From Candidatus Bathyarchaeota archaeon (GTDB lineage: Archaea; Thermoproteota; Bathyarchaeia; TCS64): a stretch of DNA of 15,042 bases. The notes below the pieces were generated by a model. That model worked only from the letters and a program-made list of their open reading frames with translations. It ran no database searches and had not been told where the DNA came from. The stretch's first letter is position 1. Each line of letters starts with the position of its first letter. The translations under genes were made by a program, and so were the position numbers. This document shows, one piece after another, positions 5,565 to 11,592 of the stretch. The stretch covers positions 1 to 15,042 of the forward strand of contig CAVYVF010000020.1 of assembly GCA_963771885.1 (NCBI GenBank), written 5' to 3'.

Positions 5565-5810
5565 TAATTTTAAAAACAATGCCGCGTTCGTGATTAATCT
5601 TAGGGTCATTAAGTTGGTCTGCTGATTCACGCGTGCGAATAACTATAACGCTAACTAAAAGAACAATTGGCTTGAAGTGAGTTGAACTTGCGTGTACATT
5701 CGAATTTATTTAATTCAATTTACCAAAAATTATTTCGGCTACATAGCAGATATGCGATTTTTGGTTAAGATATGTTGTTTCTTCGCGCGCGTTAATAATC
5801 AAGATTGTTT

Positions 5811-7248
5811 TTACTTACCGCCACCGCTTCCCTTTCCGGATCCCCGCCGCCCTCACCTGATCCGCTTCCTCCCTGACCTGAGCCATAGTACTGCCCACCC
5901 TGCGAAGCGTCGCCGAAGAGACCGTTAGCACCCGAGTAGTCCCCCATCCTCATCCTCCTCATGCCCTCATTAACGAGCCCCTGGAGTTCCTGTATCTGAG
6001 CCTCTACAGTCGAAGCATCTTGGCCACGTCTTCTAAGCCTCTCTGCTACACCTTGCTGTACCTGTATCTGGCAGCGAATCATGTTAAGCTGTATCAGCCC
6101 TTGAGACAGGTCATCGTTCCCAAGATCACCCAAGCATAAGCGTAATCTACTCGATGCTTCCTCGAGACCACTGATCGCATCTCCGTCGAGGCCCTCCTGG
6201 AGGCGGTTCTCAGCCTGAGCGGTTAACCCGTTAGCCTCTTCAAGTCGCTGCCTAGCAGAGTTTATGTAAGAGGTTTGAATGTGGGCGCTTAGCTGATCAA
6301 GGTCATCACCTGACGAGCCTATTCGCTCACGTAGACGATTCGCGAACTGAGCAGCAAGGCCTCTCCTATAGTGGTTGAGGCTGGACTTGATGAGTTGCAT
6401 TGCTACTTGCAGGTCATTCTGAGCGGCCGTTAAAGCCTGAGCCGCCTCATCGTAGCTACCCTCCCCCATCTTTATTGAGGCTAACGCGAGGCTAGACTCA
6501 GCTGACTCTAATAACGTGGTTAGAGTCGGGAGGTTTGCGTCATCCTCATCGAGGTTTACAATCAACTCCGATACTTGGTCTAGTTTGTCGTTAAGATTCT
6601 CTAATCTGTGTGTTAAGGCCTCATTTTGGCTGGGGATGTACTCGTATCCCTCCGCGTCTCCTAAGGATAGTGCGAGGCCGTTTCTGAAGTGACGCATAGC
6701 ACGGTAGCCGCTTCAGCGGAGGCACCATAGAGTCCTTGAGCGTGCAGACTCTTAGCATCCGCGACGGCCTCCTGTCCCTGAGCCATCTCAGAGTTCGCCG
6801 CCGCTGGCACGATGTAGCCTAGTGCTATGATTTCTCTCATGGTTCCCCCGGCTAAGGCCTGGGATCCCTCCGCAGATTCGATTAGCTGCCTCGCAATCTC
6901 GCCGATGGAGCTAGTAGTAACCGTGAAGAATGCTTCACTCGACAAATCGCCACTTGTAGCAGCAACTTTGTAGACTCCCAATGCGGCATCCGAGGGCAGA
7001 GTATACGTCGATTCATATACACCTGTCGAGTCCGCCTTCACCTCAACATCGTATATTTGTATAGCGTCAACCTATATCGATAAATCGAGAACTGCATCGG
7101 CTGGAGATGTTCCATTGATAGTAACGACGCTTCCAACACTATAGTAAGCTTGGCCGGTTTGAACCGTGAGCGCATCGGCGAAAGCAATATGCGCTACAGG
7201 CAGCATTAGCAGTGCAGCTAAGATCACCGCCATTATACTCCTTCTCAT
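5811..7248 (-). CDS. Large secreted protein: signal peptide, Ig-like (MG2-type) beta domain, long alpha-helical repeats, Gly/Ser-rich tail (reconstructed across indels)
   Basis: MRRSIMAVILAALLMLPVAHIAFA signal; TVQTGQAYYSVGSVVTING...YTLPSDAALGVYKV beta sandwich; Ala/Leu/Glu/Gln-rich helices. Breaks at ~7073, ~6700 and ~5845. Adding one G to the G-run gives GGGGSGKGSGGGK-TAA(5811-5813); otherwise the stop is 5792. GGTGA SD-like sequence lies upstream of ATG 7248. Confidence 0.7.
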
Positions 7249-7309
7249 CCGCTTATCACCTGTAATATGCCTGTTATTGTGTCTACTTGAGGAACATGGA
7301 CTATTGTTT

Positions 7310-7325
7310 TGGAACACTTGTTCCA
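7310..7325. promoter_or_regulatory. Palindromic operator copy 1, TGGAACA-CT-TGTTCCA
   Basis: Perfect 7-2-7 inverted repeat abutting the inferred regulator stop codon, ~60 bp upstream of ATG 7248. An extra half-site GGAACA lies at 7291-7296. Confidence 0.75.
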
Positions 7326-8629
7326 TCATTCTTGGGCCTCCCGGTACTTTTTGACGACGGAGATGAGGCTTTGGCCACCGATTTTTTCTCCTCAAGGATG
7401 CCCATAGATATTAGTCGCCTTATCATCCTCCATGTGCTGGTTCGGGGTATATCGAAGCGGTCCCTGATTCGCGTTGGCAAACACCTGGCCTCGATGCTCG
7501 GCAATGAACCTTAAAACCTCCTTATCGTTGACTCGGAGCTCGGTGTGTTTCTTGAATATAGCTTCCAAGTTCACAGCGCTATCGTCGGTTCTCCTCGGAA
7601 GTCGCCTGCTGAGTTGGTGTAGGCTTAGTAGGTTCCTCTTTTCGCCTCTTATAGTAGAGAAATATACCAACAGCAGCCAAGGTAATGGCTACAGCGCCGC
7701 CGATGATGAAGATGTAATTGACCTCTGATTTTGATGTTGATGCAGATACGTACGATACATCGGCTTTTGTTTTTGCCTCCGAGTAGGCGCCTGAGGAGTA
7801 TTTGCTCTGCGCGTCTGCGAGGGAGGCTTCAGCCTCAGCTAGGTTGGATGTCCTTCCCTCATTCTTCGCCGTTTGGATTGCGGTTGATGCGTCTTGTATT
7901 GCAGATTTTGCCGCCTGCGCCGCTTCGTCAATATTTAGCGCCAGGTTTTCCGCCTGGGCGGCAAGCTGCTCGGCGCTTAGATATCTGTTGCGTTAAATCG
8001 CTGTCTTCGCCTGAGCCAGCAGGTATTCGGCCTCCGTGGTTATGACGCCTTTATCCTTCACCATCTCGATTGCCGCTTCAGCGTCCTGAATAATGGACTC
8101 GGCGTGATCCTTCACAGCCGTTGCAGAGACTACGTAGGATACTTGGTTGTTGCCAAGAGGCAGAGTAATTTGGGTTCTCTCATTCACGGTTTTGACGCTT
8201 AAAGGTATCTGGCTAATGCTCGACGATCGTGGCTCCGGAGGGCATTGTAACCAAAAAGTTCGCCGGAGAAGTAACATTAAGGGTCCAAAGTATACCGATC
8301 TTCGATGTGAACTCAGGAGTAGAGTAGGTGAAGGTAAGCTTCGAGGATCCTAGGGAGTCAAACGTGATATTTGAGACTGAAACTGTTGAAACGAGTGGAA
8401 TTCCCAGCTCGTTCACTACAAAAAGATCTGTGAATGTTGATCCGAATAGTGAGATCGTTACTCTGGCTAGCGATGGGTCCACGTCGACTCCGTATGTTAT
8501 CGCAGTGGTGCCGTCAGCGTATACGAATGCGGTGAGACTCTTTGAAATATACTCTGAGGAAAATGCGCAGGGAGCCATCAGCGTCAATAAGGATAGTCCG
8601 AGAAGGAGAGCGGCGCCTGCATGCTTCAT
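7326..8629 (-). CDS. Membrane-anchored transcriptional regulator (COG2512-like): signal peptide, extracellular beta + helical domains, TM helix, C-terminal winged HTH (reconstructed)
   Basis: MKHAGAALLLGLSLLTLMAPCAFS signal; TM YIFIIGGAVAITLAAVGIFLYY followed by KRRK (7651-7716, missing from the ORF track). C-terminus reads LRVNDKEVLRFIAEHRGQVF..IRDRFDIPRTSTWRMIRRLISMGILEEKKIGGQSLISV. Breaks at ~8220, ~7995, ~7590, ~7470 and ~7385. Confidence 0.75.
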
Positions 8630-8658
8630 GTACAACTGGTTCAATCCACGACCTTCTG

Positions 8659-8667
8659 TTTATAAAA
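8659..8667 (-). promoter_or_regulatory. Archaeal TATA box for the regulator gene
   Basis: TTTTATAAA on the minus strand ~30 nt upstream of ATG 8629. Confidence 0.55.
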
Positions 8668-8692
8668 CAATTGAAGCGGGGATTAGGATATT

Positions 8693-8710
8693 GTGGAACA
8701 GTCGTTCCAC
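8693..8710. promoter_or_regulatory. Palindromic operator copy 2, GTGGAAC-AGTC-GTTCCAC
   Basis: Inverted repeat in the divergent intergenic region. A TATA-like TTTAATTT (8719-8726) starts 10 bp after the 16-bp core. Confidence 0.75.
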
Positions 8711-8758
8711 GCTTGCCCTTTAATTTTACCGATAGTCTGCTATAGGCGGCGACAAATA

Positions 8759-9109
8759 ATGAAGACGCTAAAAATCTTCGGAATATTCGCGCTGCTACTT
8801 GTGGCAGGCGCGTTTGTTGTTCCCGCGCTCGCACAGCAGATGCAGAGCCGCTCCCAGCTAGGCGACGGTGATGGTGTATGCGACTGCGATGGCGTGTGCG
8901 ATGGCACTTGTGACGGTGTTTGCGATAAGGACGGTGATGGCGTCCCTGACCAGACTAGGTCTAGGACTAGGGACTGCAGCTGCGACGGCTCACAGACCCA
9001 GGATGGGCTGCAGAAGGGGGACATGACGCAGACCCGTAGCAGGCTCTGTCAAGTAGCAGATCAGTTGAAGACCCAGCAGAGGATCCAGCTTAAAGACCAG
9101 AGCTGCTGA
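8759..9109 (+). CDS. Small secreted Cys/Asp/Gln-rich protein (116 aa)
   Basis: Signal peptide MKTLKIFGIFALLLVAGAFVVPALA, CDGx tandem repeats, DKDGDGVPD, QTRSR repeats and 9 Cys. Followed by a hairpin and T-run. Confidence 0.75.
   Translation: MKTLKIFGIFALLLVAGAFVVPALAQQMQSRSQLGDGDGVCDCDGVCDGTCDGVCDKDGDGVPDQTRSRTRDCSCDGSQTQDGLQKGDMTQTRSRLCQVADQLKTQQRIQLKDQSC
8861..8950 (+). repeat. Intragenic 12-nt-period repeat encoding (C)DG(V/T)
   Basis: tgcgatggcgtg-tgcgatggcact-tgtgacggtgtt-tgcgat, with variation concentrated at synonymous positions. Confidence 0.7.
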
Positions 9110-9146
9110 ACTCGAATCTAGTCTGAGTTCCACTTTTTTTATTTTT
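9108..9146 (+). terminator. Hairpin plus oligo-T terminator
   Basis: GAACTC...GAGTTC stem followed by TTTTTTTATTTTT right after the stop codon. Confidence 0.6.
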
Positions 9147-9194
9147 AATTATTCGCGAAGTATTTTATTGATAGATTTTTAGTGAGCGTATATT

Positions 9195-9210
9195 TGGGAC
9201 AGGTGTTCCA
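9195..9210. promoter_or_regulatory. Palindromic operator copy 3, TGGGACA-GG-TGTTCCA
   Basis: One mismatch to consensus. Followed by CACTTGTCC and TTTTAGTT at the same spacing as copy 2. Confidence 0.72.
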
Positions 9211-9261
9211 CACTTGTCCTTTTAGTTAATGATATACACATTACTTGTGGAGGATGAAAAA

Positions 9262-9498
9262 ATGAAAATGACGAAAATGGTCGGAGTGTTAACATTATTG
9301 CTCGTGTCAGGCGTTTTTATTGTTCCAGCGCTTGCCCAGCGAGTAGATTCAGTCTATATTGACTTGGTTAGCCCGGGGCCGGCTCCCTCATCAGGCGACG
9401 GTGTACCAAGTGGTAACCCGTATATTCAACCAGATACTGGAGGCGTGGGACCTGCTCCGAATGCCGGCGACGGGGTATCAGACGGCAGTGGGTTTTAA
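9262..9498 (+). CDS. Small secreted Gly/Pro/Asp-rich protein (78 aa) with two GPAPxxGDGVxxG repeats
   Basis: GGAGGA SD at 9249-9254; signal MKMTKMVGVLTLLLVSGVFIVPALA; repeats at 9376-9414 and 9448-9486. Confidence 0.72.
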   Translation: MKMTKMVGVLTLLLVSGVFIVPALAQRVDSVYIDLVSPGPAPSSGDGVPSGNPYIQPDTGGVGPAPNAGDGVSDGSGF

Positions 9499-9531: not shown

Positions 9532-10008
9532 TCAGTTGAGTGGCATATTTTGGAGTATCCACTTCTCCACGAATCGCTGAGATGCGGTAAAACCTTCATC
9601 AAGGAATATTGCACCAACGAGCGCCTCTAAGCTGTCTGATCCGAAGGATACGCTTCTCCTTCTGATTTTTTCATCAACACTTTCTTCGAGGAATAGATAC
9701 TTTTCGAACCCGAGTCCATCCGCTATCTTATCCAGCTCGGTGTTTTCGGTCATTCTGCGGGCATCGTTCATCTCTTTGAGAGGTGTGTCTCTGGCATACA
9801 TGGCTCGGTAGAGTATCAGGTCGATTATCTTGTCCCCGAGCAGGGCTAGTCTGAGCATCTCGTCTTTTGAGGTGAGGCTAAGACCAAGTGGATTTCTATG
9901 GCTTAAGGCCGTGACGAGTAGGGCTTTGTCTTTGAAGTTTAACCCGAATAGTTCCTCAAACTCGTTGAGTCTATTTTCGGTGTAGAGCCTTGACGCGTCT
10001 TGAGACAT
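9532..10008 (-). CDS. Stand-alone RNase III nuclease domain protein (no dsRBD; Mini-III-like)
   Basis: FKDKALLVTALSHR, RLALLGDKIIDL and SDSLEALVGAIFLD signatures. The 158-aa protein ends right after the nuclease domain. Confidence 0.82.
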   Translation of the reverse strand: MSQDASRLYTENRLNEFEELFGLNFKDKALLVTALSHRNPLGLSLTSKDEMLRLALLGDKIIDLILYRAMYARDTPLKEMNDARRMTENTELDKIADGLGFEKYLFLEESVDEKIRRRSVSFGSDSLEALVGAIFLDEGFTASQRFVEKWILQNMPLN

Positions 10009-10212
10009 AGTTGAAGATAGGAACTAAGTGTCATCTTATGTTTTTGGAATTTCTCGACTGTCCTATTTCTCTAATGGTAAACATAATGTCAAGATAAAAC
10101 GAACAATCAAAGAAAATTTCGATGTATTGGGTTCGTGTGTGCCGACTTTGTAAAGTTTCCTTTTCAAAAAACGTTAAACAGCTTCCCAAAGGCGTATTCG
10201 GGGCAAAGGTCG

Positions 10213-11592
10213 ATGGATTCCAAGATAATCTCATACCTAATCGTCGCAATACTCGTGGGCAGCAGCGTCTATCTCGGAAACATCATACTAGATAAAACCA
10301 ATCAAGAACAAAGCCCCCAAGAAACAGCAGAACTCAGAGCACAGGTGGCGAACCTCACCAAATCCCTCTCAACACTCGAATCGGAGTGCGACTTACTCCG
10401 TGACGAGCTAGCCACCCTCTCTGAGAAGAACTTGGTGAATAAGACTGTAACAATAGGCTACCTTGACCATACAACACGAGACATACAACACGCCATCGAC
10501 ACGAAACGCTTCATCGAGGAGATTATTGAGCCGGACCTCAACGAGTACGCTGCTAAGCTCGGGTACGGTCTACGCTTCGAATTCGACATAGAGTTGGTTA
10601 GAGACATGATGACCTTCAACCGGCGATTCATCGAGCTCAAAGGCAGGGGCATCGAAAACATTATCGTCGGGAGGGGTAACGCCGGAGTCGATGTCAGCCT
10701 CAGCTACGCGGCCAGCAATGGCATGGTCCTAGTCAGCGCCACCTCCAGCCAGTGGGACCTCGCCATCGGCCAGGGCGTCAAGGAACGCCTCTTCAGGCTC
10801 TGCCCCTGGGATAGCTACGAGGGCACCTCCCTTGGAGACCTGCTCTGGGAGAGAGGGGTCCAAGGAGTTGTGGTCCTGCAGCGTGGAGACTCCTGGGGAG
10901 ACAGGGTCTTCCACGACCTCAGGAGGGCTTGGTGGCAGCTTAGTCAAGAGTCAATCGCAGATAGCATCAGATACGATGTGTCGGCTAGTGACTACACGAG
11001 CTACCTGCAGCAACTCGATACTTTAGTCGCGGAGGAAATTGCGAGTGGAGTGGATAGGGAACGCTTGGCGGTGGTCGCCCTCTGCCAGCGGGAGGAGGCG
11101 CCTCAGGTGCTGCGACAGGCCGCGGCCTACCCCCGGCTCATGAACGTCACCTGGTACGGGGTGGAATCAACGGCGAATAACACCGCGGTCATAGAGCAGG
11201 CTGGGCAGTTGGCTGCCCAGGTTGGGTGGGTTAGCCTAAAGCCTGACATGCCACAAACTGACGCCTATCGCAGCCTCTCCACGAGGTACGAGTCCTTGAT
11301 CGGTCGAGAGCTGGATATTTCGAGTGCTTACCTCTACGACTCGGCGATGGTTCTGGCTAGGTCAATCGTTGAGGCGCAGAGCGCGGATGGCCTTAAGGTG
11401 GGGTCGGTTTTCCCGATGGTCGCGAATGTGACTTATGGTGTGACGGGTTGGTGTGGACTCAACTCCGACCACGACCGGATCCCCACCCCCTATGGTATCT
11501 GGAGCTACACAACAGCCGGAAACGGTACTGTCACCTCGGTAAAGATCGGGAGCCTCATCCCAGCTACGTATAGGTACAGTGGACCTTGGTAA
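10213..11592 (+). CDS. Membrane-anchored ABC-type branched-chain amino acid (Liv-like) substrate-binding protein with coiled-coil stalk
   Basis: N-terminal TM, heptad stalk (ELRAQVANLTKSLSTLESECDLLRDEL), LFRLCPWD, RGDSWG, AYLYDSAMVLA and YGVTGWCGLNSDHDR. ATG 10213 preferred over GTG 10135. Confidence 0.8.
   Translation: MDSKIISYLIVAILVGSSVYLGNIILDKTNQEQSPQETAELRAQVANLTKSLSTLESECDLLRDELATLSEKNLVNKTVTIGYLDHTTRDIQHAIDTKRFIEEIIEPDLNEYAAKLGYGLRFEFDIELVRDMMTFNRRFIELKGRGIENIIVGRGNAGVDVSLSYAASNGMVLVSATSSQWDLAIGQGVKERLFRLCPWDSYEGTSLGDLLWERGVQGVVVLQRGDSWGDRVFHDLRRAWWQLSQESIADSIRYDVSASDYTSYLQQLDTLVAEEIASGVDRERLAVVALCQREEAPQVLRQAAAYPRLMNVTWYGVESTANNTAVIEQAGQLAAQVGWVSLKPDMPQTDAYRSLSTRYESLIGRELDISSAYLYDSAMVLARSIVEAQSADGLKVGSVFPMVANVTYGVTGWCGLNSDHDRIPTPYGIWSYTTAGNGTVTSVKIGSLIPATYRYSGPW

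Follow-up and report, generated by a model that had tools for sequence, protein, structure and literature searches.

Transcription regulators that combine a DNA-binding domain and a membrane anchor in one polypeptide are common in Thermoproteota, and ArnR is the sole studied archaeal member in the available part of the survey by Demey et al. (2023, PMC10269533). Here we describe a candidate regulon built around such a protein in a stretch of 15,042 nucleotides from Candidatus Bathyarchaeota archaeon (assembly GCA_963771885.1, contig CAVYVF010000020.1; hereafter the window), which is an entire contig (C20) of a 2.46 Mb genome and whose homologues come from records carrying Bathyarchaeia names. 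The regulator is encoded on the minus strand at 7326–8629, and three exported proteins, A, B and C, are encoded at 5792–7248 (minus strand), 8759–9109 (plus strand) and 9262–9498 (plus strand), each behind one copy of an operator-like element. An earlier note had proposed that this one-component membrane sensor controls the three secreted proteins through a palindromic operator. With a predicted DNA-binding domain and at least one transmembrane (TM) helix in one protein, the regulator falls within the class as that survey defines it; in the available text of the survey, Bathyarchaeia are not mentioned and no operator or regulon is given for the family.

The bacterial co-components ToxR/ToxS and VtrA/VtrC (Kinch et al. 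2022, PMC9214523) likewise pair a membrane-tethered factor with an exported partner, encoded by the next gene, on its outer domain, an arrangement that is predicted here for protein A. The adjacent downstream partner gene is found in the window, at most Bathyarchaeia loci and in ammonia oxidisers; in some families gene A is in convergent or upstream position instead. The N-terminal CadC-like helix-turn-helix (HTH) of the co-components has no counterpart; the window regulator has the sensor first and a winged HTH (wHTH) at the C-terminus, so that the topology is opposite. The partner is not lipocalin-like but an MG2-type immunoglobulin (Ig) domain with a helical bundle, the sensor is a β-sandwich like those of M1 aminopeptidases and ribophorin I, and the partner gene itself bears the operator. 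The word 'archaea' occurs 0 times in the main text of that paper. ArnR and ArnR1 of Sulfolobus acidocaldarius are also membrane-bound activators; they oligomerise and need more than one box upstream of the B recognition element (BRE) and TATA box. In ArnR, however, the HTH is N-terminal and is accompanied by HAMP and sensor domains and two C-terminal TM helices, no exported ectodomain stands in front, and the targets are pili and archaellum genes (PMC6396743, in the part available). TFB-RF1 and EarA bind just upstream of an off-consensus BRE, as would be the case here, and EarA uses four short repeats, whereas the binder proposed here would be anchored in the membrane, and it is the BRE position itself that the last repeat takes up (PMC5937170, PMC5512572, in part). 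A description of the system was not found in the open-access literature, with DUF7343, DUF5667 and the earlier note's label COG2512 included and subscription papers and supplements outside the coverage, nor in the available part of the PSP survey (PMC11237479).

The palindrome TGGAACANNTGTTCCA is present without mismatch at 7310–7325 and with one mismatch each at 8694–8709 and 9195–9210, as first reported, and two further matches in the window have three mismatches each. At three or fewer mismatches the window thus contains 5 matches where 0.54 would be expected, a number that none of 200 shuffles attained. The palindrome is not common at random genomic sites: with at most one mismatch it occurs only 4 times in 2.46 Mb, three of these sites being in the window and the fourth within a coding sequence on a different contig. 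The three copies stand 62, 50 and 52 nt ahead of genes with signal-peptide-like starts, in agreement with the earlier note. That note had taken TGGAACA-N2-TGTTCCA as the whole operator; the palindrome is real, but it is only the head of a longer element with phased direct repeats, in which TGRAAC-N4-GTTYC is followed by one or two GTTCC-like repeats at 10 bp that abut a weak TATA-like box. The long consensus is TGRAAC-N4-GTTYC-N5-RTTCC-N5-GTTCY, running directly into a TATA-like box such as TCTAATA. The left arm is missing from some copies, and in one copy there are six direct repeats, so that the direct repeats are the core of the element.

Copy 1 (7283–7325, minus strand, long type), which adjoins the stop codon of the regulator, consists of the palindrome (7325–7310), a degenerate middle repeat (7305–7301), GTTCC (7295–7291) and the TATA-like box TCAAGTAG (7290–7283). 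Copy 2 (8694–8726, plus strand, short type) consists of the palindrome (8694–8709), the repeat TGCCC (8714–8718) and the TATA-like box TTTAATTT (8719–8726), and in copy 3 (9195–9228, plus strand, short type, degenerate) the box starts at 9220. The distances from these boxes to the start codons are 42, 40 and 42 nt for copies 1, 2 and 3, respectively. The reservation that copy 1 has no equally spaced TATA box is removed, since copy 1 carries one extra repeat and its box is found one helical turn further out. When scored with a matrix built without any site of this genome, copy 1 reaches 33.5 bits and is the sole genome match above 12 bits (shuffle maximum 12.6); copy 2 reaches 24.9 bits and is the top genome match for a short-type matrix without this genome's sites (maximum in 10 shuffles 16.2). 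The remaining matches in the genome of the window are within the shuffle range, and no additional regulon member was found there; a short-type model (R2) under stricter filters did not return this genome's copies.

A function of the element as RNA, either hairpin or terminator, was considered, given that copies 1 and 3 have terminator-like scores, that copy 1 follows the regulator's stop codon and that copy 3 can also be read as a hairpin with a T run. It is very improbable, however: an A–C mismatch interrupts the would-be stem in 11 of 33 distinct palindromes, the best-kept part is the direct repeats, and the element is absent behind regulators without a following gene A.

Beyond the window, the element accompanies the regulator as well as homologues of each of the three secreted genes. 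It is found at 67 of 80 regulator loci in named records and at none in each of 5 block shuffles, so the motif is conserved beside orthologous regulators; about 17 of the 67 positive loci, as judged by eye, coincide with training sites. Among the 13 loci without it, three have a degenerate form on a looser search, including that of Ca. Bathyarchaeum tardum. At the 27 relatives' loci with a readable wHTH, the long element stands directly after the regulator's stop codon in 21 (the window counted) and the short form in one more; as a rule, distant families and Nitrososphaeria carry the short two-repeat form. Among 150 Bathyarchaeia genomes, an element match (E ≤ 0.001 to either search model) is present in 48 of 66 regulator-positive genomes (E ≤ 1e-20) compared with 2 of 84 regulator-negative ones, among which one helical-repeat-only match and six weak matches are counted; outside the window's order the figures are 14 of 28 and 2 of 80. 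The element goes with gene A irrespective of its placement, which may be downstream, upstream or convergent, and is absent from four loci where the regulator, with a C-terminus nonetheless alike, is followed by an unrelated gene. Since it occupies differing reading frames, it does not reflect a coding constraint.

Two simpler markers were rejected. The bare palindrome matched 63 of 151 genomes, but is a poor marker for the class, because outside the window's order 30 contexts were inspected and the majority had no repeat or TATA-like box; a tail-only pattern over the phylum was not above its reversed control. A family with a different recognition helix showed the full element in 0 of 4 loci, and 9 loci of weaker homologues showed no intergenic site, both sets being too few for a claim of co-variation. 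A perfect palindrome, TAGAACAATTGTTCTA, was also seen at G000 C23:411839–411854, upstream of two small paralogous genes, with an element-model score within the shuffle range. In several lineages (L211, L331, L341, L347, L349, L350) the palindrome has a five-base spacer, as in TGAAAC-GCNGC-GTTTCA. The palindrome at 7310–7325 includes GAAC-N4-GTTC, which we take to be the LexA box of Gram-positive bacteria; the resemblance probably reflects convergence among winged helices. A typical Bathyarchaeia regulator locus was seen in one record titled Patescibacteria group bacterium (L132), which is likely misbinned.

It had also been suggested that copy 2 serves the regulator's own divergent promoter. 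This is unsupported, because the regulator has a canonical TATA box of its own, TTTATAAA (8659–8666, minus strand; assigned from sequence, with tRNA promoters for comparison), 37 nt before its start codon and 27–28 nt from copy 2, because the regulator promoters of relatives have no such site unless a target gene is divergent, and because the homology of two other runs to the window begins exactly at 8694. Of the earlier reading, the analysis supports a conserved operator-like element that is tied to the regulator and its putative targets and stands at the position of an archaeal activator site.

The promoters behind the element are off-consensus. The upstream regions of 30 of 36 tRNA genes of the same genome can be aligned on a TATA box with an A-rich BRE, whereas in 54 elements the BRE position is GTYCC and the TATA-like box deviates as well; at −6 to −3 before the box, the A fraction is 0.08 in the elements versus 0.48 in the 30 tRNA promoters. 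TFB-RF1 and EarA activate weak-BRE promoters from directly upstream sites (PMC5937170, PMC5512572, in part), and it is likely that bound wHTH domains would activate by aiding TFB and TBP onto promoters of this kind. The last GTYCC repeat, at −5 to −1 relative to the TATA-like box, sits on the BRE position and would suit a repressor too. Because of this overlap, a reading deserves mention in which the same regulator represses, covering the BRE and blocking TFB until a signal, perhaps proteolysis, frees it; promoter-bound regulators that block TFB or TBP are described in the available part of PMC5937170. As BRE and TATA both deviate from the genome's tRNA promoters, a repressor would find hardly any basal transcription to act on, and the majority of half-sites lie upstream. 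We regard repression as unlikely.

The architecture of the regulator had been called correctly, as signal peptide, ectodomain, TM helix and winged HTH, although the gene is broken in this assembly, with several frame changes and one stop. Gene A is affected as well, with one frame change (near 6700) and one stop (near 7072). Both sets of breaks are likely assembly errors, since the regulator is intact, with 433 aa, in relatives at 80–90% identity, contigs of two other sequencing runs do not have the indels at 7983, 7998 and 8222, and rpoB, an essential gene, is likewise split in this assembly. Proteins were modelled on intact homologues. The regulator model (mean predicted local distance difference test score, pLDDT, 89) comprises a signal helix, a β-sandwich (residues 28–168), helical repeats (174–298), a hydrophobic TM helix (306–329) with basic residues next to it, and a wHTH (352–422) whose recognition helix has a conserved PRTS/T-x-WR. 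At E ≤ 0.01, 13 of 15 members are matched by MarR_2 and HTH_IclR and 12 of 15 by DUF7343 (PF24034; best 1.7e-5), with an ammonia-oxidiser member scoring 19.6 against a curated cut-off of 27.6; the frameshifted regulator of the window genome gives no DUF7343 match. A kinase or receiver domain was not found in the regulator.

The β-sandwich resembles M1 aminopeptidases in their N-terminal domain (Z 12.2, root-mean-square deviation (rmsd) 3.3, 136 aligned residues) and, tied with it, human and yeast oligosaccharyltransferase chains (Z 12.1 at rmsd 14.4 over 195 residues and Z 11.3 at rmsd 4.5 over 168), which we take to be ribophorin I; the helical unit resembles DUF4398 (Z 10.6). Having a fold in common is not evidence of function.

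Protein A, modelled on an intact homologue, carries behind its signal peptide an MG2-type Ig domain (Z 13.3, rmsd 1.6, 87 aligned) and a long helical bundle. When regulator residues 26–300 and A residues 28–450 from the same organism were modelled together, the complex scored 0.78, compared with 0.00 for the best of 3 controls; at least 79% of contacts were common to the runs, and the partner pLDDT was at least 86. Of 157 solved complexes, 116 attain the mark that this model passed, as do 2 of 215 mismatched pairs; with the alignments used here these counts apply only roughly. In the model the β-sandwich of the regulator lies inside the helical bundle of A, and the closest contacts, D92, L94 and G95, are 80–97% conserved, a TLG-like motif being retained in most of the distant members. 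It is reasonably likely, on this model, that A binds the regulator's outer β-sandwich. A profile match of the regulator to A (probability 97%) rests on the helical repeats and is a lead only. A rough count by hidden Markov model of A beside the regulator (64 of 80) missed known cases and was not used. None of genes A, B and C of the window has a Pfam family above cut-off, and the clusters obtained from the Atlas are unnamed.

The same gene order as in the bacterial co-components (PMC9214523, in part), in the window as in most Bathyarchaeia and ammonia oxidisers, together with the passing complex model, could also mean that A is an obligate positive co-sensor like ToxS or VtrC, stabilising or activating the regulator instead of inhibiting it. 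We consider this rather doubtful, given that in Bathyarchaeia A has its own element-bearing promoter and in several families is convergent or upstream, and that A is a helical bundle rather than a ligand-binding barrel. The preferred reading remains that A, as the main exported target, binds the sensor domain and so would feed back; the binding step is fairly likely.

The genes behind the element were followed further in 60 retrieved regions, chiefly around remote matches, of which there are up to 11 per genome. Besides homologues of A, B and C, their products include DUF5667 proteins and further exported proteins without a name, a single subtilase, some small cytoplasmic proteins and, in one genus, stand-alone receiver domains. 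A hydrophobic N-terminus is present in 38 of 59 open reading frames (ORFs) behind the element, a set that takes in close kin and regulator-adjacent A genes, versus 161 of 1561 background ORFs. Gene B homologues stand behind the element at L071, L084 and L118. When metagenome loci were picked by protein C alone, 42 of 80 had an element within 260 nt upstream, mostly at 35–60 nt; at the remaining 38 the element score is near or below 0, and many of these look bacterial. Neighbours of the element-less C homologues showed no common regulator among the 67 proteins scanned of 163 found. Ten low-G+C homologues of C (L249, L254, L255, L263, L273, L275, L278, L281, L283, L284) have a different conserved upstream element, GATGCGAC followed by CCCAGG-N6-CCCTGGG and a T-rich run; these homologues are probably bacterial, and their element may be a hairpin or a different operator. 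The stand-alone receiver genes were seen at L074, L075, L076, L092, L094, L100, L104, L105 and L112, some of them divergent from truncated regulator copies.

Protein B (116 aa) is a small exported Cys/Asp/Gln-rich repeat protein with CxCDG and DxDGDG-like stretches, and protein C (78 aa) is a small exported protein with two GPAPxSGDG repeats, in which the GDG is invariant. These features would fit a metal ion (Ca, Zn or Cu) as the cue, with the Cys/Asp-rich B and C as metal buffers. But the invariant columns of the ectodomain contain no Cys, His or Met, there were 0 metal transporters among 35 targets scanned, and the Cu-limitation motifs of Nitrososphaera viennensis are different (PMC7785015, in the part available), so that a metal cue seems improbable.

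The system extends beyond Bathyarchaeia. Within the phylum, 131 of 251 genomes are matched by the regulator alignment at E ≤ 1e-6, a count that takes in weak and partial matches; a possible range outside the phylum rests on Atlas rows under 0.9. The ammonia-oxidiser family includes proteins named Nitrosotalea, Nitrosopelagicus and Nitrosotenuis, and members are recorded for Ca. Nitrosopelagicus brevis, Ca. Nitrosotenuis cloacae and Ca. Bathyarchaeum tardum. In ammonia oxidisers an element with spacings of 12, 13 and 10 and an GTTCCGCT repeat precedes an operon that is headed by a small HTH_45 gene and also contains the regulator and gene A; with the element in this place, the regulator would control its own operon. 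The distance from the TATA-like box to the start codon is about 29 nt, as suits the TATA box of a leaderless transcript. A model of this element, whose 15 training sites come from the same family, matches 45 of 61 family genomes, mostly once. The predicted binding of A to the sensor and the range across the phylum are points that go beyond the reading of the earlier note. Divergent from the operon (L332:38–1157 and similar loci) are two genes, one for a coiled-coil protein and one like an ESCRT-III/Snf7 paralogue, a label that we assume and for which Pfam on a partial piece gave no confirmation; some genomes have extra weak elements on this divergent side.

The position of this element directly before the HTH_45 gene, with its differing spacing and repeat, also raises the question of whether a different protein reads the element, either this small soluble HTH_45 protein or an alternative TFB or TBP. 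The high conservation of the junction between element and TATA-like box and the existence of orphan sites without a regulator could be taken in the same sense. HTH_45 was found, however, in only 5 of 151 Bathyarchaeia genomes, by weak matches and in none that is element-positive, and across families the element tracks the membrane regulator. On this comparison, which covered HTH_45, a reader other than the membrane regulator is quite improbable.

Taken together, we propose, as somewhat the likelier course of events, that the wHTH of the linked regulator binds the element and activates the genes for exported proteins, and that product A binds the outer β-sandwich and feeds back. That several membrane-held wHTH domains would bind the phased half-sites is quite likely. 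Apart from the last repeat, which coincides with the BRE position, several observations weigh against the proposal. The three sites counted as regulon evidence by the earlier note are present, but copy 3 is degenerate (16.5 bits, inside the shuffle range, and below 10 bits in the held-out short-type model), and copies 2 and 3 are not independent, because genes B and C share a common N-terminus and are a single fused gene in a same-genus genome; by their sequences, the two copies probably arose by local duplication. In the modelled complex, conservation of the interface is barely above that of the rest (0.59 versus 0.56; 0.43 versus 0.39). No hydrophobic N-terminus is found in 21 of the 59 downstream ORFs, the stand-alone receiver domains included. 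An element match at the threshold used is missing from 18 of the 66 regulator-positive genomes, several of which hold sub-threshold sites, and two genomes have the element but no detected regulator, even with a second query. Their orphan elements are of the strong short type (L201:5040–5083, 42 bits, in a 99% complete genome; L203 near 3543, 27 bits), have no exported gene behind them and are possibly relics. Joint loss of a locus also takes out regulator and element together. The genomes compared include kin, which do not count as independent, and the training sites of both search models adjoin regulators, so that the link between element and regulator is a strong association rather than the outcome of a formal test.

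In the CpxAR–CpxP envelope stress response of enterobacteria, feedback comes from an exported helical protein that is itself an induced target and that binds to the sensor domain. The feedback by an exported helical target is alike in the circuit proposed here; its core has no kinase or response regulator, and no homology is claimed. By analogy with CpxP, envelope or secretion stress that titrates A would be the most likely cue. That A holds the sensor quiet until it is titrated off, most likely by damaged or unassembled exported proteins, is a tentative suggestion.

Downstream of the module in the window, a ribonuclease III-like gene (9532–10008) converges on gene C and is followed by a gene for an anchored periplasmic-binding-type protein (10135–11592), and neither has an element above noise. 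The G+C of the window contig C20 (1–15042) is 0.50, compared with 0.55–0.58 in the four largest contigs of the assembly; many of its small contigs are at 0.44–0.50, contamination of the bin is 6.7%, and the bin may be a mixture of two related genomes.

To our knowledge, many archaea have no two-component systems. How archaea signal across the membrane from the outside to their genes is largely open, with ArnR as the sole studied membrane regulator in the available part of the survey (PMC10269533). The present analysis delivers a regulator together with a precisely defined candidate operator, a list of putative targets and a predicted partner, all of them conserved between Bathyarchaeia and ammonia-oxidising archaea, and the regulatory module is real and widely conserved. 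Several unnamed exported proteins, DUF5667 included, are thereby placed in one putative regulon. Because members occur in named archaea, existing stress transcriptomes and simple binding assays can be used as a test. A bolder and more doubtful proposal is that this is a phylum-wide, kinase-free archaeal response to extracytoplasmic stress, in which the sensor, with an outer fold of the ribophorin I/aminopeptidase type, would be held off by its own exported helical target, become free once that target is titrated by damaged or unassembled exported proteins, oligomerise on the phased repeats and recruit TFB. If A does bind the sensor as predicted, the system would constitute an undescribed feedback circuit from the cell exterior to the genes.

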